Shown: positions 952-62,876, counted from the stretch's first letter. The stretch is DNA of 64,000 nucleotides from an uncultured Gammaproteobacteria bacterium (GCA_964515785.1 CAZEWH010000003.1:16013-80012); one strand, 5' to 3'. The notes: a model not told the origin generated them from the letters alone. Numbers and translations are program-made.

Positions 952-1662
952 CTAGACAACTACCTGACGGGAATGCAGGTTGACATGGGAATCAACAGAA
1001 AAGCACCAATAGATGCTGATCTCGTCATCACGAAGGTGCGAATAAACGCTCGGTACACCGTCATTGGAGACGCGCGAACCAGCACAAAGTGTCGCATTCT
1101 GGATATCCAGATGCTGACCTGTTTCACTCCAGTACTTGAGTTCATAGACCAGACGCTCTAGCAAGGTGATGGAATCAATTCCCCGCTCTTTGAGCTGGTC
1201 AACTGAAGTATTTTCCAGCTCCTCGTCAGATTCCTCTCTATCGCGAAGACGGATGACGTAATTGCAGTCAGCTACGCGGTCATTCTCGATAACATCCTTA
1301 TCCAGATTATCAACACATGTCCAGACTTTGAAGTGTTTGCGCATGACTTTAATCAAGTCGTTTAGCTTCAATCCCTTGGGGATGAAGATGACACGGTCAA
1401 AGCCGCCGGGGTTGTCGAGAATTTGAATATCAGAGAAGTCTACCGACATACGGAGGTACCTGCGGTAGAACTCCTGCCATTCTTCGCGTATATCCGAAGT
1501 AGTAAAGCAATGTTCTTCGCGCAGAAAACGCTTTAGGCTCTGAAACCACATCTGGCCATTGGGACCAGCCAGTTTTTGCAACAGGTCATACAGTGTGCCT
1601 AGCGTAACTACCGGCAGCTGTACGAGCTGAGCTCTAATCATACCGAGCATGTCTCTAGACAT
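952..1662 (-). CDS. hypothetical protein, GC-rich ORFan (island A)
   Basis: 236-aa ORF; codon usage (CTG/GCC/CGC) and GC clearly above flanks; AAGGAG 7 nt upstream of ATG; own terminator; no recognisable motif. Confidence 0.55.
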   Translation of the reverse strand: MSRDMLGMIRAQLVQLPVVTLGTLYDLLQKLAGPNGQMWFQSLKRFLREEHCFTTSDIREEWQEFYRRYLRMSVDFSDIQILDNPGGFDRVIFIPKGLKLNDLIKVMRKHFKVWTCVDNLDKDVIENDRVADCNYVIRLRDREESDEELENTSVDQLKERGIDSITLLERLVYELKYWSETGQHLDIQNATLCAGSRVSNDGVPSVYSHLRDDEISIYWCFSVDSHVNLHSRQVVV

Positions 1663-1885
1663 GGTCAGTCTCCTTTATTTAAAGGACAGTATCACTCCAG
1701 GCTTTCTAGAGTAATATGCAATAATAGCATATTTTGTTTATTTTGTCAATATTATACATACATCTAAACATTCTTGACCTTTTTCATAATTTATGGTAAA
1801 TTACAGACCAATTCAATAATAAATTTTCTCATGTCCATGCGTGAGACACTCAGTTTAAAAACTGGGTTAACGATTAATAATTAAC

Positions 1886-3112
1886 ATGACAAGTACACAA
1901 ACAAGTCCAATGGAGGCCTTACTTCAAGACGAAAAGGCTGTCCAAGTCCCAAAAATTGGTGACATGGTCACAGGTAAAGTGATCTCTATCTCTAAAAACG
2001 AAATTTATCTAGATCTAGAAGGTATTACGACCGGTATTATTCGTGGTCGCGAAATCTACGATGAATCTGATGAATTTTCAAATCTTAAAGTCGATGAAAA
2101 AGCAACCGCTACTGTCATCGGTCTTGATAATGAAAATGGCTACATGGAATTATCTTTCCGTGAAGCTGGTCACAAAAAAGCTTGGGACAATTTAGAAAAA
2201 CTTTATAACGATGGAGAAATCATTGCCTCTAAAGTATTTGATGCCAATAAAGGTGGCTTGATGATCAAATTAGGTAATGTGATTGGCTTTTTACCAGTTT
2301 CTCAATTAACTATCGAACACTATCCTCGTATTGAAGGTGGTGACAAAAATAAAATCTTGACTCATTTGAAATCATTTATTGGTCAAGATATGAAAACAAA
2401 GATTATCGATGTCAATGAAAAAGAAGAAAAACTGATTGTTTCAGAAAAAGCTGCTTGGGATGACAAACAAAAGAAAGTTATCTCCAAATATAGAGTTGGT
2501 GACAAAGTCAAAGGTAAAATCACTGGTGTGGTCGACTTTGGTGCTTTTGTAGAATTTGGTGACAACCTCGAAGGTCTGGTCCATATCTCAGAGCTAGCTT
2601 GGCAGCGCATTGATGATCCTCGTGATATCGTCAAAGTTGGCGACATTGTCGAAACTGCTATTATTGATATCGAAAATACAAAGATTTCTTTGTCTATCAA
2701 AAAACTTAAGAAAGATCCTTGGGTCGATGTTGATAAAAAATACAAAGCTGGCGATATAGTCAACGGAAAAGTTATCAAAGTCAATCCTTTTGGTGCCTTT
2801 GTAGAACTAGATGACGATATTCATGGCTTAGTCCATATTTCTGAAATCAGTAACAAAAAAATCTCAAATCTAGAAGATACTATAGAGGTTGGTAAAAAAT
2901 ACGACTTTAATATTTTGAGTGTAGAACCACATAATCATCGTCTTGGTTTGTCTTTAAAAAAGAAAGATTCTAAAAAATCTGCAGACAAAGAAACTCCAAA
3001 AAAAGAAGATAAACCTGCTAAAGAAGATAAAAAAGACGAAGAAAAAACTGACGAAAAAAAAGAGGTTAAAGAAACTAAAGAAGAAAAAGTAGAAGAAAAA
3101 GCTAAAAAATAA
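1886..3112 (+). CDS. rpsA: 30S ribosomal protein S1
   Basis: 408 aa with four S1-like repeats (e.g. GDKVKGKITGVVDFGAFVEFGDNLEGLVHISE) and Lys/Glu-rich C-terminal tail. Confidence 0.85.
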   Translation: MTSTQTSPMEALLQDEKAVQVPKIGDMVTGKVISISKNEIYLDLEGITTGIIRGREIYDESDEFSNLKVDEKATATVIGLDNENGYMELSFREAGHKKAWDNLEKLYNDGEIIASKVFDANKGGLMIKLGNVIGFLPVSQLTIEHYPRIEGGDKNKILTHLKSFIGQDMKTKIIDVNEKEEKLIVSEKAAWDDKQKKVISKYRVGDKVKGKITGVVDFGAFVEFGDNLEGLVHISELAWQRIDDPRDIVKVGDIVETAIIDIENTKISLSIKKLKKDPWVDVDKKYKAGDIVNGKVIKVNPFGAFVELDDDIHGLVHISEISNKKISNLEDTIEVGKKYDFNILSVEPHNHRLGLSLKKKDSKKSADKETPKKEDKPAKEDKKDEEKTDEKKEVKETKEEKVEEKAKK

Positions 3113-3117
3113 TTTTT

Positions 3118-4926
3118 ATGAAAAAAATCATCAAAAATTTTGTAATATTTTTCCTTATATTTGCAGTCTTAGCAAGCATCTTTGCTGCTTTTGATAAGCA
3201 AGATGATAATATTGAATCTATTACTATCACTCAACTTGTCCAAGAAATAAATAATGAGCAAGTAGAGAGTATAGAAGTAACTGGTAATGAACTGAATATT
3301 ACTCTAACAAATAAAGAATCTCGTTTGAGTCAAAAAGAAACCAACGAATCTTTGAGTACTTTACTGAGTAATTATGAAATAGCTCCTGACAAACTAGCCA
3401 AGGTCAATATTACTATTGGTGATGAACCAACTAAAGGAGTTTTCATGACTAGTATTTTTCCGTTTTTGATTCCTATCATCTTTATTATTGCTTTGATCTG
3501 GTTTATGATGCGCCAGGTCCAAGGTGTAAATAATCGAGCTATGACCTTTGGTCAATCTGGTGCTAAGGTTGCTGACCAACAAAAGCAAAAATATACTTTC
3601 AAAGATGTAGCTGGTGCTTATGAAGCTAAAGAAGATCTCAAAGAAATAGTAGAATTTTTACAACAACCACAAAAATTTATTTCCCTAGGCGCCAAAATCC
3701 CTAAAGGTGTACTATTACTTGGTGCTCCTGGTACTGGTAAGACTCTATTAGCTAGGGCAGTGGCTGGTGAAGCTAAAGTTCCGTTTTTTCATATTTCTGG
3801 TTCTGAATTTGTAGAAATGTTTGTAGGTGTAGGTGCTAGCCGTGTTCGTGATTTATTTAAAAAAGCAAAAAAAGCTGCTCCTTGTTTGATATTTATTGAT
3901 GAAATTGATGCAGTTGGTCGCCAACGTGGTGCTGGATTAGGTGGTTCTCATGATGAAAGAGAACAAACTCTAAACCAAATCTTGGTAGAAATGGATGGTT
4001 TTGATAACCAAACAAATATTATCATTATTGCTGCTACCAATAGACCAGATGTCTTGGATCCTGCCTTGCTCCGACCAGGACGTTTTGATCGTCAAGTAGT
4101 TATAGATATTCCAGATATCAAAGAAAGAAAGGCTATCTTAAAAATTCATGCCAAAGACAAACCCTTGGAAAAAGACGTAGACCTCAAACAAGTGGCTCAA
4201 CGTACTCCGGGATTTTCTGGAGCAGATCTATCCAATGTCTTGAATGAGGCTGCTATCATGGCTGCCAAAGAAGATAAAAAAATTATTAATCATCAAACTA
4301 TATTGGACGCTATTGAAAGAGTCTTGTTAGGACGTGAAAGAAAAAGTCATATCTTATCTGACAAAGAAAAAAAAATAACAGCTTATCATGAAGCTGGTCA
4401 TGCTATCGTAGCGCATGTCCTACCAAATGCTGACCCAGTCCACAAAGTATCTATTATTTCTCGTGGTAGAGCAGCCGGCTATACTATCAATCTTCCTCAA
4501 GAAGACAAAAAAATGCAAGGTTATTCTGACTTTTTGGATAACATGGCCGTCCTACTTGGTGGCTATGCAGCTGAAGAAATGTATTTTGATGAAGTGACTA
4601 CTGGAGCCAGTAATGATCTCAAAAAATTGACCAGTATTGCTCGTCAGATTGTCACTCAATATGGTATGGACAAAAAACTAGGGCCACGTACTTTTGGTCA
4701 AAAAGAAGAAATGGTTTTCTTGGGTAAAGAAATCCACGAAAGACGTGACTATAGTGAAAAAACTGCTGAAGTAATAGATGAAGAAATTTCTAAATATGTA
4801 AAACAAGCTCTGGAAACTGCCAAGAAAGTAATCACTGACAATAAAGACAAGATAGAAAAAATAGCCAAAGTCTTGGTAGAAAAAGAAACTCTAGAAAAAG
4901 AAGCTTTTGATGCATTAGTTGCTTAA
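3118..4926 (+). CDS. ftsH: ATP-dependent zinc metalloprotease FtsH
   Basis: N-terminal TM helices; Walker A GAPGTGKT; Walker B IIFIDEID; SRH; zinc motif [10 protein letters not shown]. Confidence 0.9.
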
Positions 4927-5012: not shown

Positions 5013-5354
5013 TCAAAGATCCAAACCCTCCACCTTAGCGGGGTCAAGTTGACTGCCACCATTAGGGAAAAGAACCATCGGGCCCATGGTCGGCATCATA
5101 CACATGATACGACCATTACTAATCTCCTGAGGTTTAATCTCGTTACCGTTTACAGAGCTAGTAGTGATGTCCCATTTTCTCCAGGTACCCTCACCTGGGG
5201 TCATGGCAGCCATCCACTCATTTTCAAAGCGGACCATACCATAATCGTCGATGGTAATACTCTTGATGGGCCCACGATAAACACTACCGCCCTCTTGAGT
5301 CTCAATATCACCACCAATAAACTTGCCACTGTCGACTACTTCTTGCCATTCCAT
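5013..5354 (-). CDS. hypothetical protein, GC-rich ORFan (island B)
   Basis: ORF 5013-5369; preferred start is second ATG (5354) because GGGAGG lies 7 nt upstream of it (inside codons 2-3 of the longer ORF); translation MEWQEVVDSGKFIGGDIETQEGG...; no known motif. Confidence 0.5.
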   Translation of the reverse strand: MEWQEVVDSGKFIGGDIETQEGGSVYRGPIKSITIDDYGMVRFENEWMAAMTPGEGTWRKWDITTSSVNGNEIKPQEISNGRIMCMMPTMGPMVLFPNGGSQLDPAKVEGLDL

Positions 5355-5439
5355 AAACTGACCTCCCATTAGGGTTTAAAAACAACAGATGAATTCATAA
5401 TAAATTAACACTAAGCTAAATTATTGTCAAATAGAAGAA

Positions 5440-5705
5440 CCAGTGCTTCTGATGGATAGACCTTGCGGCGCACCATCCACACTGGTTCAGCTCGGTCCTC
5501 AATGACCATGATTTAGTCACTCCGCGTACGGACGAGGACCCTTCGTTAGATCCTAGTTATTCAAATAAGCCAATGTGGCTCTCCATCTACCGGTTGCTAC
5601 CGGCAGGCTTGGAAACAGCAGATATTGTATCCAGCTTTCGGCCTATCATGTGGTGAACCCACTTCGCCGCAGCACGCAATACATAGAGCTACTGCTCACG
5701 TTTAG
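5440..5705 (-). other. GC-rich non-coding block upstream of ORF 5013-5354; candidate structured leader or small RNA
   Basis: about 270 bp with no ORF of 60 aa or more on either strand, GC far above flanks, long-range complementarity (TGCGGCG near 5' end with CGCCGCA near 3' end on minus strand); no match to tmRNA/RNase P/SRP/rRNA signature strings that I know. Confidence 0.3.
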
Positions 5706-5803
5706 AATCTATTTATGAGATTAGCAAATAAATTATTTTTAGTCAAAATATTTACAGTTATGGATATCTCAGTTAAAATAGTAATATAAATTAAATAAAC
5801 ACT

Positions 5804-6346
5804 ATGAAAAAAATTATTTTAACTATTATAATTTTGGCTCTAGTAATTTTCTTTTGGCCAAAATATAATGGTAGTGGCGGTAGTGCTGTTGACGCTAAAA
5901 ATACTCAATGTCAATGCATTGGTATTCAAAAAGATTGGGTAGCTATTGGCTCTTGGAAGTCTACTTGTTATGGAATTCCTATAGATTGCCAAACTACTTA
6001 TGGAACAAGAGACCATCTAACTACTATTTCTGAAATAAAAAATACTAAGCCTACTACAGGTAATTTTATTGTAGAAGGCTATGTAGTAAAAATATATACT
6101 TGCCCCTCATGTCCGCCAGGAGCTCAATGTAAACCTTGTATGAAAAATAATATTATAATTTCAACTAATAATAATTTGCTTGAAACTTATGATCTATCAG
6201 ATAATGAATTAATATTATTTATAAACGACCTTGAAGGACTTGAGTTAGGTAAAAAATACGAATTCTCTATAAATATTCTAGATTATAAATCTACTTTGGA
6301 AAATATAAATGATATCAAAATAGCTGGATGGAATCCAATAGAATAA
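5804..6346 (+). CDS. secreted cysteine-rich hypothetical protein (native composition)
   Basis: 180 aa; N-terminal signal/anchor MKKIILTIIILALVIFF; multiple CxC/CPxC pairs; TTTACA-17-TAAAAT promoter upstream. Confidence 0.55.
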   Translation: MKKIILTIIILALVIFFWPKYNGSGGSAVDAKNTQCQCIGIQKDWVAIGSWKSTCYGIPIDCQTTYGTRDHLTTISEIKNTKPTTGNFIVEGYVVKIYTCPSCPPGAQCKPCMKNNIIISTNNNLLETYDLSDNELILFINDLEGLELGKKYEFSINILDYKSTLENINDIKIAGWNPIE

Positions 6347-6349
6347 AAT

Positions 6350-6386
6350 AAAAAAGTCGTGGTATAGTCCACGACTTTATTTTTTA
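6350..6386. terminator. bidirectional terminator shared by convergent genes
   Basis: AGTCGTGG-TATAGT-CCACGACT hairpin flanked by A-run and T-run. Confidence 0.6.
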
Positions 6387-6704
6387 AACCTCGATGATCA
6401 CCGTATGATCGGCTGTGCCATGCTCCCAGCGAGGATTAAAATCCGGCTGCTGGAAAGTCTCATGGTAACGTGGATGAAGATCACTCTCCAGAGAGCAAAC
6501 GTCTTCGGTAGTCATCACGACTAGACAAGTGGCATCGCCAAAGCCTGTCCGTAAAGCCAAGCTATGAGCCTCTTCGGTACTCAGTGGCCACTTGGCTGCC
6601 AAGGACTGAGCCATGGATTTGGCCAACATACCATTACAGCCAGCTACGACTTTCATGACCACCTGACCATCTGAAGTGACTGTTACTAAACCTTGCGTTG
6701 CCAT
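6384..6704 (-). CDS. hypothetical protein, GC-rich (island C, third gene)
   Basis: ATG at 6704 preceded by AAGGAGG with 5-6 nt spacing (track ORF starts 6 nt earlier at a GTG); translation MATQGLVTVTSDGQVVMKVVAGCNG...; no known motif. Confidence 0.5.
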   Translation of the reverse strand: MATQGLVTVTSDGQVVMKVVAGCNGMLAKSMAQSLAAKWPLSTEEAHSLALRTGFGDATCLVVMTTEDVCSLESDLHPRYHETFQQPDFNPRWEHGTADHTVIIEV

Positions 6705-6714
6705 ATCCACCTCC

Positions 6715-6933
6715 TTAGGATCTGAAAATGTTTAGAAGAATCCAGCTGTCCCCCCGATCATCCTCCTGGCCGCGGGCCAGCTCCTGATCTAGATGAGGGC
6801 ATGATGTGGCAATGAAAATCTGCTCATCAGTGCGGGCAAGACCGACTGCTAGGGGTATTTCAGCTGAGGCCCTGCAATCGTACTGCTTGCATTCGCAAAG
6901 AATTGCCTGTGTTTCCTCGACTGCTTCGGACAC
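6715..6933 (-). CDS. small Cys-rich hypothetical protein, GC-rich (island C, second gene)
   Basis: track ORF 6715-6996 overlaps upstream gene; AAGGAGG then GTG at 6933 gives a 72-aa product MSEAVEETQAILCECKQYDCRAS...SCPH... without overlap; SD of next gene overlaps its stop. Confidence 0.4.
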   Translation of the reverse strand: MSEAVEETQAILCECKQYDCRASAEIPLAVGLARTDEQIFIATSCPHLDQELARGQEDDRGDSWILLNIFRS

Positions 6934-6955
6934 AACGGCCTCCTTAATGGTAGTT

Positions 6956-7165
6956 CTACAAACCGATTCGACCTTTGATCTGTCTTTCGGTTTCATCCAT
7001 TTTCTTTTTAAGAACCCAGAAGGCTCTTATCTGAAATCCTCCGCCGATTGTGATAATCGCCAAAGGAAGGACAATCCAAGCTGGATGCGTTGTCACATCT
7101 TTGAGAACAAAAGCTAATATCGTTCCAATAACGATAAAGCAAATACCAACTAAGAAATTCTTCAT
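6956..7165 (-). CDS. small two-helix membrane protein (island C, first gene)
   Basis: 69 aa, two hydrophobic stretches; AGAGG 6 nt upstream of ATG. Confidence 0.45.
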   Translation of the reverse strand: MKNFLVGICFIVIGTILAFVLKDVTTHPAWIVLPLAIITIGGGFQIRAFWVLKKKMDETERQIKGRIGL

Positions 7166-7292
7166 CTTGCACCTCTTTGACTTTTGAATTTATGTACGTA
7201 AAACATAGCAATATAACATAAATATATTGCTTTGTCAACATGTACCACTCACACTTTGTGTTCGGGTACATGTTTAAAAATACTAAATAAAA

Positions 7293-7313
7293 AGACCTGA
7301 ATGATTCAGGTCT
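7293..7313 (-). terminator. terminator hairpin containing the stop codon of ORF 7306-7632
   Basis: AGACCTGA-ATCATT-CAGGTCT hairpin then T-run on minus strand; TGA stop lies inside stem. Confidence 0.5.
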
Positions 7314-7632
7314 TGAAATCGTAATTCCAGCTGATTCTAATAATGAACTGGCTGCACTGTTTATCAACTCGCAGAATAGTAGAATTCAACTCCCAACTGT
7401 CCATCACAGCTTGATGACCATACTTTTTGCGTAGCAAACCCAACACATATTCATCAGTGATCTTTGTCTCACTAGGACGGACAATCCAAAAAGTGCTAGT
7501 CCTCAAGCCGTTTACTACCTTGGGTTTACCTCTAGGAAAAAGCATTCCCAAGATATCCGGGACACCGGAAAAACCATCTCTGTCTATGAGAAAAAGACGA
7601 TCTGACAAAGCAAAGTTATCACTAGGCCGCAT
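7306..7632 (-). CDS. hypothetical protein, GC-rich ORFan (island D1)
   Basis: 108 aa; AGGAGG 7 nt upstream; own terminator; no motif recognised. Confidence 0.5.
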   Translation of the reverse strand: MRPSDNFALSDRLFLIDRDGFSGVPDILGMLFPRGKPKVVNGLRTSTFWIVRPSETKITDEYVLGLLRKKYGHQAVMDSWELNSTILRVDKQCSQFIIRISWNYDFKT

Positions 7633-7747
7633 TGTTGTGCCTCCTGTTCTGTTGATTTAGAAGAACTCAAGTCTATACTTAGACTAGCTGAATTAAATAA
7701 ATATAGCAAGTAAAAAAGAGCTAGCAAATTGCTAACTCTTTGAAAAA

Positions 7748-8044
7748 CTAGTCCTCGTCCTGATTCCGCGGATCGCGGAACTTGAGCTCATGCCTGTCGC
7801 AGAACTTGGCCAGGAATTGGTAAAAACGCTCTTCATCATTTTCCCAAATCTTGACCTCAATATGCCAACCATTGGGATGATCGCGATATGTCTCAACGGG
7901 TTGAAACATTTTTCCAGCGTGTGTATCATGCACAGCAAACTCTTCGCCGTAGTTAATGATGAACTCCCAGACATGCGGCAGGGGAATTACAATATGAAGA
8001 TAGATAAAGCGCATGTAAATACTTACATCGTGCTCTTTAGGCAT
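7748..8044 (-). CDS. hypothetical protein, GC-rich ORFan (island D2)
   Basis: 98 aa; AGGAGG 6 nt upstream of ATG; 5'-UTR shares a 20-nt module with the ORF at 34872-35075. Confidence 0.5.
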   Translation of the reverse strand: MPKEHDVSIYMRFIYLHIVIPLPHVWEFIINYGEEFAVHDTHAGKMFQPVETYRDHPNGWHIEVKIWENDEERFYQFLAKFCDRHELKFRDPRNQDED

Positions 8045-9579: not shown

Positions 9580-10554
9580 ATGAAACCTTTTTACAGAAAA
9601 ATATACCCTCGATCTTGGAAAACAGTCAAAAACAATTTTTCTTTATTGTTTTTTGGTCTATTTGCTTCGATTCTGGGTTTTCAAGAAATGACAATTATCT
9701 TTAATTTTAACGAATTAGAGGCTGACTTCTTGAGCGCTACTATCATGTCTTTATACGAATGGATCAGTATAATAGCCATGACTCAAATAACTTGGGCTAA
9801 TGTCCCAGCTATCCTAAACCTTGTACTAATCTTTATTATTTTTGCTGCTATTATTATTTTGGCAATATCTTCACAAGGTGCTTTGATCTCTGCAGCAGTT
9901 GATGCCACTAGTAAAAGCAAAAAAACAATTAGTACTTATTTTTCCAAACATTTCCAAATTGGTTTAGAAAAATTTTGGTCATTACTTGGCCTTAATATAG
10001 TAAATATCTTGATTGGTTACTTCTTTGTTAAACTAATTATTCAACCATTAATTTATTTTATTGTTGTTAGTAATACTGGTCCTGGTCTTTACCTATTATT
10101 GTCTATAATAATCTTCTTTATTCTTGTACCACTAGTAGTAATTATCTCTTTTGTTACACGCTACGGAGCAGCTTATATTATTTTGAAAAACCAAAACTTT
10201 AGTAAAGCTTTTGTAAACGGTTGGAATCTATTTAAAGCCAATTGGTTGATTACTATAGAAAATGCAGTATTGTTGATTTTGATTACTTTTGTCTTCTTTT
10301 TACTAATGATATCAGCAATGGTCTTTGTCTTTACTCCATTTTTGATTCTTAGCTTTTTGATAGCAGCTAATACTCTAATTTATTGGCTAATCATATTGAT
10401 AGGCTCTTTACTAGCTGTTATCATTTTTATCCTAGCTGGTGGTATGTTTGGTGCCTATTATAATATAACCTGGGCTAATATCTGGATTCAATTAACTGCT
10501 AAAGGTAAAAGTCACAGTAAAATCCAACGAGCTACTAAAAAATATTTACCCTAA
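9580..10554 (+). CDS. polytopic membrane protein, unknown function
   Basis: 324 aa, about 6-8 hydrophobic helices, AT-rich native composition. Confidence 0.5.
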   Translation: MKPFYRKIYPRSWKTVKNNFSLLFFGLFASILGFQEMTIIFNFNELEADFLSATIMSLYEWISIIAMTQITWANVPAILNLVLIFIIFAAIIILAISSQGALISAAVDATSKSKKTISTYFSKHFQIGLEKFWSLLGLNIVNILIGYFFVKLIIQPLIYFIVVSNTGPGLYLLLSIIIFFILVPLVVIISFVTRYGAAYIILKNQNFSKAFVNGWNLFKANWLITIENAVLLILITFVFFLLMISAMVFVFTPFLILSFLIAANTLIYWLIILIGSLLAVIIFILAGGMFGAYYNITWANIWIQLTAKGKSHSKIQRATKKYLP

Positions 10555-10565
10555 ATAATATTTCC

Positions 10566-10591
10566 TGCCCCGCCTTTGGCGGGGTTTTTTG
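10566..10591 (+). terminator. rho-independent terminator
   Basis: CCCCGCC-TTTG-GCGGGG hairpin + TTTTTTG. Confidence 0.65.
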
Positions 10592-10653: not shown

Positions 10654-12393
10654 ATGTCTGACAAATCAAAATTATCCATAAGCTCTGGAAAAAGTAAACA
10701 AAAATTGTCTTCAAAGCTTTCTGAATTGGAAATAAAAGAAAAAGAAAGACAGACCGAGGAACAAGCTACCAAAGATGGCTTGTCTTATATCAATCTTCAT
10801 AAATTTCCTATTTCACAATCAGCTGTAAAAATGATTCCACGTGATAAAGCTGAATCTCTACAAACCATTTGTATTTTGTATAGCGGAGAAGAATTACGCC
10901 TAGCTTCATTGAATCCACGTAACCCACAAGTATCCAAATTGGGAAAAGAACTCGGCGATAGATATCATGCTAATGTAAAAATATACTTAACCTCAAAATA
11001 CAGCTTTGAACAAGCTTTAGAAATCTACAAAACTATTCCTATTATTACCCAAATGGAAGGAGTTAGTATTTCAGAAGAAGATCTAAATAAATTTGATGAA
11101 AAACTACAAAATTTTAAGGGCTTGGAAAAATTAATTGAAGAAACTGGCCTAACAGAATCAATCAATTTGATCATGGCTGCTGGTCTAAAATTTGATGCTT
11201 CAGATGTACATATTGAAGCTGAAGCTGAAACTGTCAAAGTCAGACTTAGAATTGATGGAGTATTACATGAAACAGCCGTCTTACCAAAAGAAGCCTGGAA
11301 TAAAATTGCTTCTCGTATCAAATTATTATCTGGTCTTAAAATAAATGTTACTGATAAACCACAAGATGGTCGTTTTGCCATTAAACTTAGTACAGAAGAA
11401 ATAGATGTTAGGGTATCGTTTATTCCTTCCAATTATGGCGAAAGTATTGTCATGCGTTTATTACGTTCTTCTAGTATCGGTCTAGAATTTGAAAAACTGG
11501 GCCTACGCGGCAAAGCCTATAATGATTTACTCAATGAATTTTCAAAACCAAACGGTATGATTTTGACGACTGGTCCGACTGGCTCTGGTAAAACTACTAC
11601 TCTTTATGCCATTTTAAATAAACTCAACCAAGAAGACACAAAAATAATTACTTTAGAAGATCCAATTGAATATAAATTACCAGGTATTATCCAAAGTCAA
11701 GTTGATACTGGTGAAGCTGGAGCCGATGTCGCTCCTGCTGCCGCTACTACTATAGTCAAACCAAGTGTTCGTTATACTTTTGCCAAAGGCTTGAGAGCTA
11801 TTTTGCGTCAAGATCCTGATATTGTGATGGTTGGTGAAATTCGAGACCTAGAAACAGCTGATACAGCTATAAATGCAGCTTTGACTGGTCATTTATTACT
11901 ATCTACCTTACATACCAATTCAGCTGCTGGTGCTATACCCCGCTTTTTAGCTATGGGAGTCAAACCATTTTTACTAGCCCCTTCACTCAATGCTATCATT
12001 GGTCAGCGTCTAGCTCGCCGTCTTTGCCAAAAATGTAAAGTAGAAGATAAAAAAGTAGATAATAAAACTATGACTCTGGTCATGAATACTCTAAATGAAA
12101 TCGATGCTAGTTCTGGTCATAAACTCAATGATCTATCTGATCTTAAATTTTTCAAAGCTAAGGGCTGTAAAGAATGTCATGATCTAGGATATAAAGGACG
12201 GGTTGGTATTTATGAAATTTTTACAATGAGTCCAGAGATAGAAAAAATGATCCTGAGTGGTAAAGTTTCAGAATATGAAATAGAAAAAACCGCTATCAAA
12301 GGCGGCATGATTACTATGATGCAGGATGGATTTTTGAAAGCACTCGATGGATTGACTTCTATCGAAGAAGTACTCAAAGAAGTCAAAGCTTAG
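10654..12393 (+). CDS. pilB: type IV pilus / type II secretion assembly ATPase (PilB/GspE family)
   Basis: Walker A GPTGSGKTTT; Asp box/Walker B LRQDPDIVMVGEIRD; His box; tetracysteine C-x2-C...C-x2-C zinc motif near C-terminus. Confidence 0.85.
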   Translation: MSDKSKLSISSGKSKQKLSSKLSELEIKEKERQTEEQATKDGLSYINLHKFPISQSAVKMIPRDKAESLQTICILYSGEELRLASLNPRNPQVSKLGKELGDRYHANVKIYLTSKYSFEQALEIYKTIPIITQMEGVSISEEDLNKFDEKLQNFKGLEKLIEETGLTESINLIMAAGLKFDASDVHIEAEAETVKVRLRIDGVLHETAVLPKEAWNKIASRIKLLSGLKINVTDKPQDGRFAIKLSTEEIDVRVSFIPSNYGESIVMRLLRSSSIGLEFEKLGLRGKAYNDLLNEFSKPNGMILTTGPTGSGKTTTLYAILNKLNQEDTKIITLEDPIEYKLPGIIQSQVDTGEAGADVAPAAATTIVKPSVRYTFAKGLRAILRQDPDIVMVGEIRDLETADTAINAALTGHLLLSTLHTNSAAGAIPRFLAMGVKPFLLAPSLNAIIGQRLARRLCQKCKVEDKKVDNKTMTLVMNTLNEIDASSGHKLNDLSDLKFFKAKGCKECHDLGYKGRVGIYEIFTMSPEIEKMILSGKVSEYEIEKTAIKGGMITMMQDGFLKALDGLTSIEEVLKEVKA

Positions 12394-12402
12394 ACTAATT
12401 AT

Positions 12403-12431
12403 AAAACCCCGCCGTTGGCGGGGCTTTTTTA
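12403..12431. terminator. bidirectional terminator between pilB and valS
   Basis: CCCCGCC-GTTG-GCGGGG hairpin with A-run before and T-run after. Confidence 0.7.
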
Positions 12432-14951
12432 TTTCAACTTATTTTTAGCTTCAATTAAATTTTGTTTATTTTGCTCTATCACTTGTGGTGGAGCATTTTT
12501 GATAAACTTTTTATTAGCTAACTTTGCTTCTAAAGATTTTACATATTTGGCTAGATCAGCTTTTTCTTTATCTGACATAGCTTTAGTTAAATTAATCCAA
12601 CCACTAGTCTGATTGATAGTAAATTTTTTGGCTCTGCTAATTTCTGTAACTAAATTCACACGACATAATTTAGATATATTTTCTAAGTCTTGTTTAGAAA
12701 ACAATTTACTTTCTAATTTACAATCTGGTAAATCTTTAGGAGGGATCTTATTATCAGCTTTTAAATTTCTGATCTTAGTGACCAAATTTTTTAGTTCAGA
12801 AAAATCCTTAATAGCTTTATTGTCTGCTTTACTAGCTGGTGGCCACTTGTCTATCAACAATAAATTTTTAGAGCCAAATTCTTGCCAAATAACTTCTGTG
12901 ATAAAAGGCGTAAATGGATGCCAAAGAATTAATAATCTTTCTAAGATATATAATAATATCTTGTCTTTGCCTTTTTCTAATTTAGCAATTTCCAGATACC
13001 AATCGGCCAATTTTGCCCAGGTAAATTCATAAAGCTTTTCACCAGCTTGAGAAAATCTATAATTATCAAGATCTTGGGTAATTTCTTGAACCAAGTTATC
13101 AAACTCAGCCAATATCCACTTATCAGCTAAAGTACTTGGCTTTGGTCTAGTTTTGACTATCTCTATTTTATTTACTGTAGTAAAAATAAATCTAGAAATA
13201 TTCCAAAGTTTATTTACAAAATTTCTATAGCCAGCAATTTTTTCTTCATAAAGGTTTAAATCAGCCCCTGGTGATGAACCAATTACTAATGATAACCTCA
13301 AAGCATCAGTACCAAATTTATTGATCATATCTAGAGGATCTATACCATTACCTAAAGACTTGGACATCTTGCGACCTTGCTTGTCACGGATCATACCATG
13401 CAGATAAACAGTTTCAAATGGCTTGTCATCCAATAAATATTCAGACATCAGTATCATACGAGCTACCCAGAAAAACAAAATATCATAACCAGTCTCCATC
13501 ACGCTGGTCGGATGAAAATTTTTGAAATCTGTAGTCTTATCAGGCCAACCTAAAGTTGAAAAAGTCCATAAAGAAGAAGAAAACCAAGTATCAAGAGTAT
13601 CTGGGTCTTGCTTCCAACCCCCACCTGTTGGTTTATCTAGGCTAACTTTTATTTTATTGCCCTTGTACCAAACAGGTATCCTATGTCCCCACCAGATTTG
13701 TCTAGAAATACACCAATCATGCAAATTATTCATCCAGTGATAATATGTTTTTTTAAATCTATCAGGTAATATTTCAATATCGCCTTTTTTAACAACTTCA
13801 GTAGATAGTTGTTTAAGGGTTTTGTTACGACCTGGTATTTTTTTGTCTACTGCTACAAACCATTGCTCAGAAGTAAGTGGCTCAATAGCTGTACCACAAC
13901 GATAACAAACTGATAAATTATGTACATAATTTTCATCAATTTTTTCTACTAGGTCTTTTTTCTTTAAAATCTCTACAACTTTTTGGCGGGCATCTTTGAC
14001 TGGCAAACCAGCCATATCACCGGCTGCTGAAGTTAACTTACCATCTTTGTCTATAATCTGTTCTATTTCTAGATTATGCTTTTGAGCTAATTCAAAATCA
14101 GCAAAACTATGAGCTGGTGTGATTGTCATAGCACCACTACCCATTTCCATGTCAGCAATTGGATCAGCAATTACTTTGGCCTTGATCTTACCATTGATCC
14201 ATTCAACATCAAATTCTTTGCCAATTATGTTTTTGTATCTTTTGTCTTTAGGATGAACTATGATGACTTTATCAGAAAACTTTGTCTCTGGACGAGCCGT
14301 ACCAATCACTACTGGACCATATTTAAAATAATAAAATGGACTTTTCTGTTCTTTGTATTCAACCTCGTCATCAGCCAGGGTCGAAGCACAGCGTGGACAC
14401 CAATTTACTATGCGATTACCTCTATATATCAAACCATCTTTGTACATTTTGATAAAAGCTTGATTGACTGCATGAGATAAACCATCATCAAAAGTATATC
14501 TTTCTCGAGACCAGTCACAGCTAGCTCCCATCTTACGAATCTGATTACGGATAGTATCTTGGCTTTCGGCTACATATTTTTTGACTCGTGACAAAAACTT
14601 GACTCTGCCTAGTGTGTGTCGGTCAGTACCTTCATCGGCTAATATTTTTTCTACTTTGGTCTGAGTAGCGATCGCTGCATGATCAGTCCCTGGCAACCAT
14701 AAAGTCTGATATCCCTGCAAACGCTTGTAGCGAATCATCAAATCCTCATAAGCCATAGTCGAAGCATGGCCAAGATGCAAAATGCCGGTCGCATTGGGAG
14801 GCGGCATGGAAATAGTAAAAGTCTTGCTTGTTTTTTTGAGATTATCAGGATTAAAAAAACCAGACTGTTCCCACAGCTGATAGATATTGTCTTCATAAGA
14901 AGCCGGTATATATGCTTTTGGTAATTCTTTTTTACTCATTCTAATCATCAA
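12429..14951 (-). CDS. valS: valyl-tRNA synthetase
   Basis: HIGH motif PPPNATGILHLGHA, KMSKS motif KMSKSLGN, 840 aa; true start may be the internal MSKKELPK Met (14936). Confidence 0.9.
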   Translation of the reverse strand: MMIRMSKKELPKAYIPASYEDNIYQLWEQSGFFNPDNLKKTSKTFTISMPPPNATGILHLGHASTMAYEDLMIRYKRLQGYQTLWLPGTDHAAIATQTKVEKILADEGTDRHTLGRVKFLSRVKKYVAESQDTIRNQIRKMGASCDWSRERYTFDDGLSHAVNQAFIKMYKDGLIYRGNRIVNWCPRCASTLADDEVEYKEQKSPFYYFKYGPVVIGTARPETKFSDKVIIVHPKDKRYKNIIGKEFDVEWINGKIKAKVIADPIADMEMGSGAMTITPAHSFADFELAQKHNLEIEQIIDKDGKLTSAAGDMAGLPVKDARQKVVEILKKKDLVEKIDENYVHNLSVCYRCGTAIEPLTSEQWFVAVDKKIPGRNKTLKQLSTEVVKKGDIEILPDRFKKTYYHWMNNLHDWCISRQIWWGHRIPVWYKGNKIKVSLDKPTGGGWKQDPDTLDTWFSSSLWTFSTLGWPDKTTDFKNFHPTSVMETGYDILFFWVARMILMSEYLLDDKPFETVYLHGMIRDKQGRKMSKSLGNGIDPLDMINKFGTDALRLSLVIGSSPGADLNLYEEKIAGYRNFVNKLWNISRFIFTTVNKIEIVKTRPKPSTLADKWILAEFDNLVQEITQDLDNYRFSQAGEKLYEFTWAKLADWYLEIAKLEKGKDKILLYILERLLILWHPFTPFITEVIWQEFGSKNLLLIDKWPPASKADNKAIKDFSELKNLVTKIRNLKADNKIPPKDLPDCKLESKLFSKQDLENISKLCRVNLVTEISRAKKFTINQTSGWINLTKAMSDKEKADLAKYVKSLEAKLANKKFIKNAPPQVIEQNKQNLIEAKNKLK

Positions 14952-16440: not shown

Positions 16441-16544
16441 AGCTATATTATAGCAGAAATCTTGACAAAATATAATCAAAATGTTAAGTTGAGTTGTTTT
16501 TCGTAGTACACTTCAACCTTAAAGAAAAAAGGCAAGGTAAATAA

Positions 16545-17234: not shown

Positions 17235-17300
17235 ATCTTCAAAGACTCTCAGAATTTTGAGAGTCTTTTTCTTTTATGTAAAATATGCTTAGATATAATT

Positions 17301-18012: not shown

Positions 18013-18016
18013 AAAA

Positions 18017-18036
18017 ACCAGTCTTGTGTGACTGGT
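18017..18036 (-). terminator. terminator hairpin for ORF 18046-18450
   Basis: ACCAGTC-TTGTGTG-ACTGGT with T-run on minus strand. Confidence 0.5.
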
Positions 18037-48984: not shown

Positions 48985-48994
48985 GATTAACCTC

Positions 48995-49297
48995 CTAACC
49001 CTCTTCAGAGCTTTTAAAGAAATCTCCCCAAGGGCCATCAACTAACTTCAGAATGGTCAACGGCACTTCAAAACGCTGATGATTCATGCTCGGTACCAGG
49101 ATCGTAGCTATGTCATTACCAGAAATCTGATCCGGTACATCATCTTCATTGATAATGCCTGTCGTTGCTTCCTCCATTGCCACGATAATGCCCTTGGTGT
49201 CAGCTGGTAGATCTTCATGAGCTTCGATCAGAGTGACTTCAGTTTCCATCAGATCTTCAGCTGTGAATTCAACTTCTACTCTTGCTCCCATGTTCAA
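48995..49297 (-). CDS. hypothetical acidic protein, GC-rich (island I, second gene)
   Basis: 100 aa, AAGGAGG 6 nt upstream. Confidence 0.5.
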   Translation of the reverse strand: MNMGARVEVEFTAEDLMETEVTLIEAHEDLPADTKGIIVAMEEATTGIINEDDVPDQISGNDIATILVPSMNHQRFEVPLTILKLVDGPWGDFFKSSEEG

Positions 49298-49314
49298 CCT
49301 CCTTATAAAGACAA

Positions 49315-49623
49315 CTATTCAAGTAACTCACAAAACATTTTACCAAAGACAAGAGCAGACATATGCTCTAATAGAGTATTCTCACGCCACCACGCAGCTG
49401 CTTTTGGACTCTTGATTGCAAGGATCTCTACAGCTTGCATTGCATCCACAGGATATCCCATTATGTTCTCAGGTTCTGCTAGACCACCATGAACACCTGT
49501 ATGAACACCCCTATTAAGATCGATAGCTTTGATAGGAATTTCCAAACCAACCCATTGTTCTCGCACCCATTCTGGGGCTTGTCCCGCAGGGACGCTGGTA
49601 ATCCTGATTTTTGACATAGTCAA
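49315..49623 (-). CDS. hypothetical protein, GC-rich (island I, first gene)
   Basis: 102 aa, AGGAGG 7 nt upstream. Confidence 0.5.
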   Translation of the reverse strand: MTMSKIRITSVPAGQAPEWVREQWVGLEIPIKAIDLNRGVHTGVHGGLAEPENIMGYPVDAMQAVEILAIKSPKAAAWWRENTLLEHMSALVFGKMFCELLE

Positions 49624-58312: not shown

Positions 58313-58538
58313 AACAAATAAAATAAAGGAAAATCATTGATATCTTACCAAAAAAACAGCAAAAAATCAATGTCAAATTGCTCAAAAAAGTTATCAACTT
58401 GACGAGCCTAAAAATAAATAATAAGATATAAATATTCAAAGTTCTGTACCATTTAATAATTAAATTTATTAAGCTCAATCTCCGTGTCCATGCCTGACGG
58501 GGATTTTTTTTATTGTTATATTTTGCTACAATACAGAC

Positions 58539-60122
58539 ATGTCCAAAAACAAATGGCTAAACAAAATACAAAAATATAAGCTAGATTATGTGGCTTTATT
58601 TGTTTTGGTGGGTGGCTATTTTACCAAATTGCAATGGAATAATTATATTGGTGATCCAGATGGTTTTTATCATACCAAAATAGCTCAATTTTTAGGCGAC
58701 GGCATTGTTCTCAAAAGCTTACCTTGGATGCAATTTAGTACTCTGACAAATAATTTTACTGATCATCATTTTTTATATCATATCTTACTTGTTCCTTTTA
58801 CTTATTTTAACGATCCGTTGATTGGTATAAAAATAGCTACTGTTTTATTTGCTACTGTGATGGTTTTAGTTTTTTATTGGCTATTGAAAAAATTTGATCT
58901 AAAATATGCTTGGATTTTTGCCTTACTATTTATTACTATGGAAGCAACTATTTTTAGATTAGGTCTAGTCAAGGCCAATTCTCTATCTTTGTTGATTATT
59001 TGGTTTTTGATTTATGCTTTATACCAAAAAAAATACTGGTTAACAGTATTGCTTGGTTTTATTTTTGTCTGGCTATATGGTGGCTGGCCAATTAGTCTTA
59101 TTATTCTAGTTACTTATTTGATAGCTGAATATATTTATAAAAAAATACACACAAATAAATTAAAAATATTTTGGTCAAAAATTATTCGTGTATTTTATCA
59201 AAAACCAGGCAATAATTTCAAAATATCTTTGAGTTTAATAGCTGGTTTGATATTAGGCCTAATCATCAATCCATATTGGCCAAAAAATTTGTACTTTTAT
59301 TACCAACAAATTGTCCAGATTGGCATAGTCAATCTAGGGCAACAAATCACAGTGGGTGGTGAATGGTATGGTACTAATCTGATGGCTATTATATCATCTG
59401 GAGCACATATTTTTGTATTAGCTAGCGTAATCTTTATTATTTTGGTGCTAAATCATAAAATAATTAGCCGACAAACTTGGTTTAGTTTTATATTGTCTTT
59501 GATATTTTTATTGTTAACTCTCAAATCTCGTCGTTATGTAGAATATTTCTGGCCTTTTGTATTATTTTTTACAGCTTGTGGCCTGACTGATATTATTAAA
59601 AAATTTAATTGGTCTGTTATCAAAAAATTCTGGCGTAGCATATCTAGTTTTCAAAAAGTTTATTTAGGAATCGTTAGTACTGTTTTTATTATTTTTATAT
59701 TGGTGCCGGTTTGGCAAAATATTATCGAAACTAAAATTCCACACAATCATGCCATCAACAAATTTGAAGCAGCGACCACTTGGTTGGCGTCCAATACTCC
59801 TCCTCAATCAATTATTTTGCATAGTGATTGGGATGAATGGCCAATACTATTTTATAATAATGATCAAAATTATTATATTATGGGTCTTGATCCAACTTTT
59901 ATGTATAATTTTGACAAAGATTTGCACCAAAAATTTGTCTCCATCACAACTGGTAAATATAAATACAATCTAGACAAACAAATCAAACAATCTTTTGATG
60001 CTGATTATATTTTTGTAGAAAAAAAGAGCCACCAGGCTCTAATAAACAATTTGGAAGAAAATCAAAATATTAATTTAGTCTATGAAGATGAATTATCGCA
60101 AATTTATTTTATTGAAAATTAA
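58539..60122 (+). CDS. large polytopic membrane protein (GT-C-like glycosyltransferase fold?)
   Basis: 527 aa, more than 10 helices; no catalytic motif confidently read. Confidence 0.4.
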   Translation: MSKNKWLNKIQKYKLDYVALFVLVGGYFTKLQWNNYIGDPDGFYHTKIAQFLGDGIVLKSLPWMQFSTLTNNFTDHHFLYHILLVPFTYFNDPLIGIKIATVLFATVMVLVFYWLLKKFDLKYAWIFALLFITMEATIFRLGLVKANSLSLLIIWFLIYALYQKKYWLTVLLGFIFVWLYGGWPISLIILVTYLIAEYIYKKIHTNKLKIFWSKIIRVFYQKPGNNFKISLSLIAGLILGLIINPYWPKNLYFYYQQIVQIGIVNLGQQITVGGEWYGTNLMAIISSGAHIFVLASVIFIILVLNHKIISRQTWFSFILSLIFLLLTLKSRRYVEYFWPFVLFFTACGLTDIIKKFNWSVIKKFWRSISSFQKVYLGIVSTVFIIFILVPVWQNIIETKIPHNHAINKFEAATTWLASNTPPQSIILHSDWDEWPILFYNNDQNYYIMGLDPTFMYNFDKDLHQKFVSITTGKYKYNLDKQIKQSFDADYIFVEKKSHQALINNLEENQNINLVYEDELSQIYFIEN

Positions 60123-61998: not shown

Positions 61999-62089
61999 CC
62001 TCACTATTTCAGCTAATTTATCCATTAATCTAATTATAGCAAATTATGAGAAATTATTTTAACATGTGGATGCGGAGTATCTTTATGTG

Positions 62090-62118
62090 TTGACAAAAGC
62101 CAAAAAATATGATATAAT
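62090..62118 (+). promoter_or_regulatory. perfect consensus sigma70 promoter TTGACA-17-TATAAT driving lipoprotein gene
   Basis: exact hexamers, 17-nt spacer; AAGGAG 8 nt upstream of ATG at 62190. Confidence 0.55.
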
Positions 62119-62189
62119 ACTATATTCATGAGACATTCATGGACAAATAGCTAAAACGGCTAAAACAGCCCTTTCCAAGGAGATAAATA

Positions 62190-62876
62190 ATGAAAGCCAT
62201 CAAAGTGATGTTGCTGCTACTTGCGTGCCTGAGCTTGCTCCTGGTGGGCTGTGGACAGCAAACCAGGACCACAAGTGGAGTCAAAATCGGTAGCTGGCCT
62301 CGTGGCAAAGATGCCACTGGAAGCAAGGTGATCGTCAGCGCCTCTTTTCAGAACAAATACAAATACCCCGTTGAGATCGCAATCAACAACGAGGATTTTG
62401 TTCTGATTCCGAGTGGTAAGAAATTTCCTTTCCGATTCAAGACTCATCACCAGGTCAGATATACTGTCCGGGCTGAAGTGGACAACGGCTATGATACCCA
62501 ACGTACCACAATCGAAGTCCAACGCTCCGGGCTATTCACCTACGGCGATGTGATTGTCATCAACGAAAACTTCATTCGCGATGCTTGTGAAGTGGTTGGT
62601 ATCATTACCAACAACCGCGGTTGGGAGATTACTTTCTGGCATTCTCAGGGTAGTAAACGCTGGGTCTTGAAACCTGGTCAGAGTACAGAGAAAATTACCA
62701 TTCTCTCTATTCCAACTACCTTCCACTGGGAGATCAGTGACCCTGACTACAGACAAAGTATGTTTGGAGTCAAGAGGCATCGGCCAACCTACTCTTATAA
62801 AGTCAATATCAATCAGAGCGCTGATTTTTACTGGCAGGGAGAGTGGCTCCACTGGCATTTTCCTCTTAATGATTGA
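62190..62876 (+). CDS. lipoprotein, GC-rich (island J)
   Basis: signal peptide with lipobox LLVGC; 228 aa; GC-rich codons; consensus promoter + SD + terminator. Confidence 0.6.
   Translation: MKAIKVMLLLLACLSLLLVGCGQQTRTTSGVKIGSWPRGKDATGSKVIVSASFQNKYKYPVEIAINNEDFVLIPSGKKFPFRFKTHHQVRYTVRAEVDNGYDTQRTTIEVQRSGLFTYGDVIVINENFIRDACEVVGIITNNRGWEITFWHSQGSKRWVLKPGQSTEKITILSIPTTFHWEISDPDYRQSMFGVKRHRPTYSYKVNINQSADFYWQGEWLHWHFPLND

Follow-up and report, generated by a model that had tools for sequence, protein, structure and literature searches.

The 64,000-nucleotide stretch of DNA analysed here (GCA_964515785.1, CAZEWH010000003.1:16013-80012; the window) carries two classes of genes that differ in base composition and in translation-initiation signals. 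Seventeen short open reading frames (ORFs), referred to as cassette ORFs, are GC-richer than their surroundings and led by strong Shine-Dalgarno (SD) sequences, while the genes of the AT-rich backbone are SD-poor. The source genome is that of a Komeilibacteria-like bacterium within Patescibacteria, also called the candidate phyla radiation (CPR), roughly 0.8-1 Mb in size, and GC-rich, SD-led accessory genes are a real, lineage-wide feature. The explanation we consider best, with a probability of about 0.6, is that SD-poor Patescibacteria keep a flexible gene pool, the cassettes, in intergenic slots, each unit being an autonomous promoter-SD-ORF-terminator module.

Two classes of genes in the window

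ORFs were called and their starts refined before class statistics were calculated. A 500-nt composition profile showed discrete GC peaks of 0.41-0.51 over a background of 0.26-0.38, at the positions where an earlier, sequence-only reading of the window had placed short ORFs in GC-richer patches. The cassette ORFs (n = 17) had a GC content of 0.458 +/- 0.032 and a third-codon-position GC content (GC3) of 0.448 (range 0.34-0.55), compared with 0.331 +/- 0.034 and 0.239 (range 0.15-0.31) for the backbone ORFs (n = 49). The two GC3 ranges had zero overlap (Mann-Whitney p = 1e-9). GC at the first and second codon positions (GC1, GC2) was likewise raised in the cassette ORFs.

The oligonucleotide statistics pointed the same way. 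When the cassettes were split at random into two halves, their composition-normalised trinucleotide signatures correlated at r = 0.87, the same value as for two backbone samples, and cassettes and backbone correlated at r = 0.63; the cassettes share an atypical signature. On the sense strand of whole cassettes, third-position adenine dropped more than third-position thymine. This is also typical of GC-richer genes and is thus not diagnostic of retro-mutagenesis. The strand bias of the cassettes (10 units minus, 3 plus) was not significant with operons counted once, by hand computation.

For the SD comparison, the 20 nt upstream of each start were paired with the 16S rRNA 3' tail, and a duplex of -7 kcal/mol or lower was scored as an SD; a search of all loci recovered no 16S 3' end of this organism. 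An SD was present in 16 of the 17 cassettes and 2 of the 49 backbone genes (Fisher p = 3e-12). The 17th cassette, 34872, conforms when read from its likely start, the GTG at 35069, which has AAGGAGG at a spacing of 6 nt.

The backbone had been described as having no SD sequences. It is indeed SD-poor, with 46-47 of the 49 genes lacking one, but it is not SD-free. An extended SD, GAAAGGGGGTGA, with about 12 nt complementary to the 16S tail, is present upstream of the AT-rich pilin gene at 63393-63746 (minus strand), one of the two SD-positive backbone genes. The same sequence precedes 42732-42974 (plus strand), an AT-rich gene adjoining uvrB that encodes a two-helix membrane protein of 79 amino acids (aa) and is additional to those two. 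SD use in the backbone is therefore rare rather than absent, and the two genes make up a second, distinct class of SD-led genes that is AT-rich. GAAAGGGGGTGA is kept before the pilin and small membrane-protein genes in three genomes: the window, its sister species and a more distant relative, L100 (L numbers are labels of related loci compared with the window). Conservation of the extended SD in all three points to a probably functional ribosomal anti-SD, and from these conserved leaders we infer its presence in this organism.

The jump in composition is the only point that speaks for assembly chimeras or contamination, which we regard as a practically negligible explanation. Independent JGI and ENA assemblies contain the same cassette junctions, 99.9-100% identical, and in the sister species orthologues occupy the corresponding positions. 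Misassembly, which had been named as a possible refutation, was therefore not borne out. Strain polymorphism in the window species was almost nil, at no more than 5 single-nucleotide polymorphisms per 12 kb.

Anatomy of the cassette units

A near-consensus TTGACA-16/18-TATAAT promoter was found 25-70 nt upstream in most cassette units, and a strong hairpin with a T-run (intrinsic terminator) closes every cassette transcription unit. An own terminator had been claimed for every ORF; this applies to every transcription unit, but three operons (6956/6715/6384, 49315/48995/48652 and 21685/21309) have one promoter and one terminator each. Stop codons within terminator stems, claimed for several cassettes, were verified for 7306-7632 and only there. 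The positions of cassettes next to terminators or tRNAs were confirmed, as were the weak SD and the own terminator of a further GC-rich ORF, 16545-17234. The features are as follows.

952-1662, minus strand: cassette, 236 aa; assigned to a CPR-wide family of diversity-generating retroelement (DGR) variable proteins; N-terminal helical domain and C-terminal C-type-lectin/FGE-like domain
1721-1749, minus strand: sigma-70-type promoter of 952-1662, TTGACA-17-TATTAT, TG-extended, 58 nt ahead of the start codon
919-944, minus strand: intrinsic terminator of 952-1662
5013-5354, minus strand: cassette, 113-aa orphan; SD GGGAGGT, own terminator; GC 0.48, GC3 0.48
6384-7165, minus strand: three-gene cassette operon; promoter 7210-7238, terminator 6353-6378; GC 0.39-0.53; genes 6956-7165 (69-aa membrane protein), 6715-6933 (72-aa Cys-rich protein, most likely starting at GTG 6933) and 6384-6704 (106 aa); SDs AAAGAGGTG, TAAGGAGGC and TAAGGAGGTG
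7306-7632, minus strand: cassette, 108-aa orphan; SD CAGGAGGC; stop codon within the terminator stem 7292-7314
7748-8044, minus strand: cassette, 98-aa orphan; SD CAGGAGGG; terminator 7715-7741; genomic context identical in 19 contigs
16545-17234, plus strand: cassette, 229-aa DUF218 protein; weaker SD AAGGCAAGG; terminator 17241-17268
18046-18450, minus strand: cassette, 134-aa orphan; SD TAGGAGGA; promoter 18499-18528; terminator 18014-18039
21309-22719, minus strand: two-gene cassette operon; 21685-22719, CoaD-like adenylyltransferase/P-loop kinase fusion; 21309-21704, DUF3307 membrane protein; SDs AAGGAGGC and AAGGAG; domains from Pfam and NCBIfam
22899-23651, plus strand: TrmB-like regulator, AT-rich and SD-less; GC 0.30, GC3 0.22; NCBIfam TrmB/Csa3 helix-turn-helix matches
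23870-23935, plus strand: 21-aa mini-ORF adjoining tRNA-Glu, in a segment whose orientation is reversed in the sister species; promoter 23815-23843; SD AGGAGGA; doubtful as a real gene and possibly a cassette remnant
24032-24310, minus strand: cassette, 92-aa orphan; SD AAGGAGGC; promoter 24354-24381
34872-35075, minus strand: cassette flanked by tRNA-Cys and tRNA-Leu; zinc-ribbon-like CxxC...CC protein of 65-67 aa
48652-49623, minus strand: three-gene cassette operon encoding acidic orphans of 100, 98 and 110 aa; SD-coupled starts, that of ORF 48652 most likely being GTG 48984
62190-62876, plus strand: cassette, 228-aa lipoprotein (LVGC lipobox); perfect promoter 62090-62118; SD AAGGAGA

The orphan cassette proteins had no matches in PHROGs, PADLOC or NCBIfam, and the 5013-5354 protein had none in Pfam, PHROGs or PADLOC. 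An AlphaFold2 (AF2) prediction of lipoprotein 62190 from a two-sequence alignment reached a pLDDT of 36 and gave no usable model.

Start regions of the two classes

Upstream of the backbone genes, A made up 45-67% and G no more than 5% at most positions. Of the 42 backbone genes examined that start with ATG, 76% had T at -1, and the stretch from -20 to -2 was almost devoid of G. This T(-1), G-poor context may be Kozak-like and specific to the lineage. The cassette starts showed AAGGAGG centred at -12 to -6. The minimum free energy over -30 to +30 was -9.2 kcal/mol for cassettes and -3.2 kcal/mol for backbone genes, and the greater structure of the cassette start regions would plausibly make an SD necessary for GC-rich genes.

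Extended -10 boxes (TGCTATAAT or TGCTACAAT) ending 6-8 nt before backbone ATGs were observed at 18584-18621, 33915-33937 and 58517-58539, and on the minus strand at 16440-16465 and 27337-27360. With a -10 box so close to the ATG, those mRNAs are probably leaderless. There was no overall peak of -10 boxes 6-8 nt before the starts of all genes, only four to five convincing cases. The genes for 16S rRNA and for the ribosomal proteins bS21, bS18 and bS6 were not found in the window or in the related loci examined.

Host lineage and recurrence of the pattern

The FtsH encoded in the window is 74-77% identical to that of metagenome-assembled genomes named Candidatus Komeilibacteria, Parcubacteria or Patescibacteria, and CPR-type pilins of the type IV secretion system are also encoded. 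The gene order lactamase-B, S1, FtsH, 324-aa protein, type II secretion system E (T2SS-E) ATPase, ValS, TsaE, TsaD, TrmB is clade-wide. Specific intergenic gaps in this order, here called slots, range from about 60 bp to 6 kb and are occupied by cassettes, whose neighbours are ftsH, valS, tsaD, glmS, polA and similar genes.

The same dichotomy was present in seven related loci (L013, L015, L016, L017, L020, L025 and L031), where small ORFs with a GC3 of 0.43-0.67 and AGGAGG-type SDs lie among SD-less, AT-rich neighbours. The DUF218 slot of L025 is occupied by a homologue 44% identical to the window protein. In a pooled set of 41 independent AT-rich Patescibacteria loci (GC below 0.40; 745 kb, 686 ORFs, 51 of them SD-led), a GC3 more than 0.10 above the locus median was observed for 39% of the SD-led ORFs and 6.5% of the remaining ORFs (odds ratio 9.3, p = 4e-10).

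Turnover and selection in the sister species

A sister species was recovered for most of the window, with a backbone nucleotide identity of about 85% and a synonymous divergence (dS) of about 0.7, with values of about 0.5-1.0. The slot between TsaD and TrmB contains the DUF218 cassette in the window and a GC-rich, SD-led Cupin_2 gene in the sister species. The slot after the AsnS-like gene holds the CoaD-like/DUF3307 operon and the TrmB-like regulator in the window and DUF134 and DUF5320 in the sister. Between the ferric-reductase-like and HAD genes, the triple operon 48652-49623 of the window has no counterpart in the sister, where one bidirectional terminator hairpin links the two genes; the window keeps this hairpin as the terminator of the triple operon. 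Units found only in the sister comprise a WG-repeat ORF of 63 aa, two ORFs of 67 aa each and two GC-rich promoter-terminator units lacking an ORF. The comparison shows turnover of cassettes at individual slots between the sister species, by insertion in one or deletion in the other and by replacement, without an integrase or att-like repeats.

Some further differences between the two species were noted. A 540-bp GC-rich (0.44) insert in the sister (L011 1725-2264), located between the H+-PPase gene and tig and absent from the window, contains two promoter and terminator units without credible ORFs, possible small RNAs or cassettes in decay. In the two species the tRNA-Glu segment has opposite orientations (window 23672-23812, L094 11607-11748), so this slot has been rearranged. 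The window gene at 18621-20024 (plus strand), a 467-aa AT-rich gene of backbone type with a weak CglD/MtsD-like adhesin-repeat match, is present in the Komeilibacteria loci L015 and L024 and missing from the sister; slots therefore lose AT-rich genes too.

Four cassettes are common to both species at the same positions, namely 18046, 24032, 34872 and 62190. Three of them (18046, 24032 and 62190) gave dS values of 0.83-1.5 and ratios of nonsynonymous to synonymous divergence (dN/dS) of 0.16-0.37 (NG86; no dS estimate for 34872), with backbone genes ranging from 0.28 to 1.04 in dS. The sister orthologue of 18046-18450 is diverged (43% aa identity), that of 24032-24310 is 76-77% identical (dN/dS 0.16), and that of 62190-62876 is 78% identical (dN/dS 0.17), with a GC3 of 0.54 and 0.57 in the two species. 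Purifying selection and shared positions identify these cassettes as true protein-coding genes inherited from the common ancestor. Their proteins change faster than those of housekeeping genes, and their GC3 stays high nonetheless.

Homologues of the cassette proteins

Named relatives of the cassette proteins came from Patescibacteria or, for one distant cluster, from DPANN archaea. The 952-1662 protein had at least 141 relatives, and all of those with an organism name were assigned to Patescibacteria, Parcubacteria, Komeilibacteria or Yanofskybacteria. The CoaD-like/kinase fusion (21685-22719) had about 94 full-length representative relatives, the nearest named ones belonging to Patescibacteria, Minisyncoccia and Parcubacteria; a distant Aenigmarchaeota cluster came next. 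A search of 5.8 billion clustered proteins gave lipoprotein 62190 a single relative, its sister orthologue. By these searches, the cassette families are Patescibacteria-restricted, apart from the distant Aenigmarchaeota cluster, or genus-level orphans. A check of related genomes for the same cassettes, as proposed with the earlier reading, showed four in the sister species and homologues of 952, the CoaD-like protein and the DUF218 protein in relatives.

The sequence-only reading had named repeated acquisition from one foreign source as one of two possibilities. In its explicit form, the cassettes would have come recently from a single GC-richer, SD-using donor outside the CPR, for example a host bacterium, and would not yet be ameliorated. 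An atypical composition, an oligonucleotide signature common to the cassettes and the possession of their own expression signals would all fit such a donor. Against it, the named homologues are all from Patescibacteria or DPANN, with Aenigmarchaeota only as distant relatives, and four cassettes are older than the split from the sister. GC3 is also heterogeneous among the cassettes (0.34-0.55) and splits within single modules (see below), the 952 family is GC-rich in dozens of unrelated CPR hosts while its own reverse transcriptase (RT) is not, and 62190 has no donor-like match. We consider this origin largely refuted and very improbable.

It is also very improbable that the cassettes are remnants of prophages or other mobile elements, such as morons, integron cassettes or the cargo of integrative and conjugative elements. 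Phage morons are by definition promoter-ORF-terminator units with an atypical composition, and DUF3307 matches a PHROG of the 'moron' category. The units are, however, scattered singly among housekeeping genes, and no phage structural or replication genes, integrase or attC-like repeats were found with the cassettes in the window. Scans of IMG/VR with the 952-family alignment and four single cassettes gave zero matches.

Cassette 952-1662 and its DGR family

A metagenome scan yielded 156 loci of the 952 family, 48 of them analysable; in these, the family gene was GC-richer than its flanks by a mean of +0.095. Members are located at differing backbone positions in different genomes. In three loci (L100-L102), the gene had a GC content of 0.57-0.59 and a GC3 of 0.75-0.80, with a backbone GC3 of 0.30-0.44. 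The leader AAAGGAGnCTGryC-ATG was present in almost all family loci. The spacer between SD and ATG (CTGACC, CTGGTC or CTGATC) is kept among homologues of 40-60% identity in unrelated hosts (window 1663-1680; L100-L182), which is unusual for an SD spacer and may reflect a regulatory or structural RNA element.

Self-comparison showed that the last 112-129 nt of the gene are repeated about 270-300 nt downstream, at 78-91% identity, in at least 16 family loci. Mismatches between this variable region (VR) and the template repeat (TR) fell at template adenines in 292 of 308 cases (16 homologous loci), and an Avd-like gene and then a DGR-type RT follow downstream in the family loci. The window protein is 47-61% identical to the family members and, by sequence, is assigned to this family of DGR variable proteins. 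Its C-terminal domain has the C-type-lectin/FGE-like fold that carries the variable region. A Foldseek comparison of the 952 model with the PDB gave nothing significant.

The copy in the window lacks the marks of an active DGR locus. A template repeat of its 3' end was not found anywhere in the 64 kb, and tblastn queries drawn from family loci (four RTs, two Avds) matched no RT or Avd in the window. Compared with heterologous TRs, 63% of the A positions and about 27% of the other bases were mismatched, which is compatible with past diversification only, and the protein was identical across samples. Given the lack of TR, RT and Avd in the window and this identity, 952-1662 is an orphan or remote target and is probably not diversified now. 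The suggestion that the window holds cassette-like accessory genes with their machinery elsewhere was therefore partly supported: the cassettes are a distinct population, and the TR and RT of 952-1662 are absent from the window.

A complete DGR is present in the sister species, on an 812-kb contig (L132 10065-12487). It comprises a GC-rich target of 175 aa with its VR at 10465-10588, a TR at 10939-11062 with 12 of 16 mismatches falling at adenines, an Avd-like gene, and an RT located at 11453-12487. A paralogue of the 952 family that lacks a TR is located 4 kb upstream (6007-6714). The L132 TR was considered as a template for 952-1662 or this paralogue and was rejected, as it matched the 3' end of neither; this DGR serves another target. 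In L102, perfect 112-bp direct repeats (9672-9783 and 10865-10976) with REP-like hairpin units (ATTCCCGC...GCGGGAAT) surround the homologue of 952-1662, and these repeats may be a substrate for cassette gain and loss by recombination.

Gene-specific composition within co-inherited modules

Base composition differed between genes of the same module. In 17 distinct DGR loci, GC3 was 0.38-0.79 in the target and 0.19-0.43 in the RT, a few hundred bases apart; the target exceeded its own RT in 17/17 loci, by a mean of +0.28. In the window, the CoaD-like operon (GC3 0.39) is SD-led, while the divergent TrmB-like regulator (GC3 0.22) is SD-less. This divergent pair is kept in L183, from a Parcubacteria genome of 43% GC (5070-7056), where both genes have a GC3 of 0.43-0.45 and the regulator at 5070-5828, adjoining the CoaD-like homologue, is 55% identical to that of the window. 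The conserved arrangement (window 21685-23651 and L183) suggests a regulated coenzyme A (CoA)-salvage module in CPR.

A module that was imported whole and is ameliorating neutrally should not split by gene in GC. As both GC and SD use differ within one co-inherited module, simple unameliorated import cannot explain the pattern. In the literature searched, we found no description of SD-led initiation coupled with persistently high GC, or of a GC-rich DGR target contrasting with an AT-rich RT.

GC-biased gene conversion was also considered. Under this explanation, slot genes would recombine far more with related populations than the backbone does, heteroduplex repair biased towards GC would raise their GC, and the SD would be kept only since GC-rich starts need it. 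The slots are recombination-prone, as seen in the slot-by-slot replacement, the tRNA-Glu inversion, and the REP-like arrays and 112-bp repeats of L102; the GC excess is smaller where host GC is already high, and GC1 and GC2 are raised together with GC3. However, orthologous cassettes do not fall below the backbone in dS, so the two species have not exchanged them recently. No recombination partners are known for genus-level orphans such as 62190, and the DGR RT stays AT-rich a few hundred bases from its target. Gene conversion is accordingly judged improbable as the cause.

Proposed explanation

In the flexible-gene-pool reading that we prefer, the conserved, syntenic, AT-rich backbone (GC3 about 0.24) would initiate without SD pairing, via unstructured A-rich leaders, with some mRNAs probably leaderless. 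The slots between its transcription units usually have terminator hairpins or tRNAs at their borders and hold rapidly turning-over accessory genes. Each unit is an expression module of its own, in which a consensus sigma-70 promoter and a leader of 25-70 nt bearing a canonical SD precede one to three GC-richer ORFs, with an intrinsic terminator at the end. The modules would move by DNA uptake and recombination within the Patescibacteria gene pool. The SD would be required since structured, GC-rich starts could not take the default route of the unstructured leader, and it would be the retained ribosomal anti-SD that allows the accessory pool to be translated. High GC would belong to the gene families themselves, kept by selection or by a biased process, and not merely a fading mark of import.

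Several points weigh against this explanation. Expression of the cassettes and their dependence on the SD are deduced from nucleotide sequence. No transfer mechanism was found, and neither recombinases nor flanking repeats were present in the window: no integrase or transposase was seen, as the earlier reading had stated, no integrase domains were present in the window proteins scanned or in the precomputed Pfam annotations of orthologous loci, and the search for direct repeats flanking the cassettes gave chance matches only. AT-rich genes led by an SD exist, namely the pilin and 79-aa membrane-protein genes. Conversely, the sister species has variable genes that are AT-rich and SD-less (Asp/Glu racemase, a 460-aa gene, a 511-aa gene and DUF134), so that being accessory does not by itself predict GC-richness. 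Start-region structure does not account for the persistence of high GC. A polarised third-position substitution test (L110 and L112, with L107 as outgroup) gave near-symmetric rates, from very small counts and in a host lineage without AT bias.

Comparison with described systems

SD-independent translation with rare SD-led genes has been described in Bacteroidia (for example rpsU of F. johnsoniae), where the anti-SD is sequestered by bS21, bS18 and bS6 (PMC7797042, PMC9976891, PMC13000453). The window resembles these genomes in its SD depletion, in its A-rich, almost G-free leaders and in a minority of genes with strong or extended SDs that imply a retained anti-SD. It differs in belonging to the phylum Patescibacteria and in the size and nature of the SD minority, which is about a quarter of the window genes, almost all small, GC-rich and accessory, compared with one autoregulated ribosomal gene. 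The reason for which SD-poor bacteria retain a canonical anti-SD has to date been addressed only in Bacteroidia, and the question can now be put to a second, unrelated and uncultured lineage.

These Bacteroidia precedents also lend some support to an alternative that we hold to be unlikely, yet worth weighing, in which the cassettes form a second translation channel. Housekeeping mRNAs would be A-rich or leaderless, and the structured, GC-rich, SD-led class would be a regulon encoding a flexible, probably host-interaction set that includes the DGR variable proteins. Its mRNAs would be hidden from the default A-rich or leaderless route, and it would be switched via anti-SD availability, as by bS21 in Flavobacteria; the retained anti-SD would exist to serve, and possibly switch, this class, and selection would keep both SD and GC, with GC a functional design feature and not a trace of origin. 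The gene-specific composition within co-inherited modules, the oligonucleotide signature common to the cassettes, the SD-spacer leader conserved across distant hosts, the persistence of GC3 past a dS of about 0.8-1.0 and the structured start regions are all consistent with such a channel. It is weakened by the existence of AT-rich SD-led genes and by the heterogeneous functions of the cassettes.

The flexible-gene-pool reading also has to be set beside known forms of variable DNA. As with phage morons, the cassettes have their own promoter and terminator and an atypical composition, lie between neighbouring transcription units and vary in presence among close relatives. Unlike morons, they are located in a cellular chromosome among housekeeping genes, without a prophage or phage homologues, and they are GC-richer than the host, not AT-richer. 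Like integron cassettes, they are small, mostly orphan accessory ORFs that differ among close relatives; unlike them, they show no attC, IntI or array in the window, and the units are scattered, each with its own promoter and terminator. Cassettes adjoining tRNA-Cys, tRNA-Leu or tRNA-Glu consist of one small gene each and lack an integrase and repeats; tRNA-linked genomic islands, by contrast, are multi-gene and have an integrase and direct repeats of the tRNA 3' end.

In streamlined genomes such as those of Prochlorococcus and SAR11, flexible islets or hypervariable regions interrupt a syntenic core at fixed positions with variable genes of atypical composition. The slots described here differ from such islets in being numerous, in their size (from a single gene to 3 kb) and in holding variable genes that are marked by an initiation signal different from that of the core.

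DGRs with variable proteins of C-type-lectin fold have been described in CPR and DPANN, and DGRs are known to be common in CPR (PMC8144416, PMC11661182). The 952 family conforms to these in its 3' VR, a TR a few hundred nt downstream, adenine-specific mismatches, and the Avd and RT that follow. The window copy departs from them in its missing TR, RT and Avd, and only 1 of the 17 cassettes is DGR-related. That the diversified target is far GC-richer than its own RT is, judging from the papers searched, a previously unremarked property of CPR DGRs.

A strong SD combined with a high GC3 provides a simple sequence rule for recognising flexible, probably host-interaction, CPR genes, which are mostly unannotated orphans. 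The lineage is a natural system for probing a mechanistic link between initiation mode and base composition. Should that link reflect selection rather than history, compositional 'foreignness' in reduced genomes would have to be read differently.

Additional elements in the window

Rfam at gathering thresholds identified only tRNAs in the window and L011. In the slot between FtsH and CNNM, a GC-rich segment of about 270 nt (5440-5712, minus strand) has no convincing ORF; it has a promoter-like site (TTGACT...) of its own and ends in a hairpin and T-run. Its fold energy z-score was -4.1. No Rfam family was assigned to it (an E-value search of 5300-5850 gave one chance match), and no copy was present in any related locus examined. 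The segment is probably a small RNA not described before.

An 80-nt nested-hairpin repeat (CCCCCTAGnCTAGGGGGAG...) is present directly after genes at 20034-20111 and 28227-28307, the two copies being 81% identical. Further copies are located at slot borders in the sister species, and the repeat has the appearance of a REP-like terminator element.

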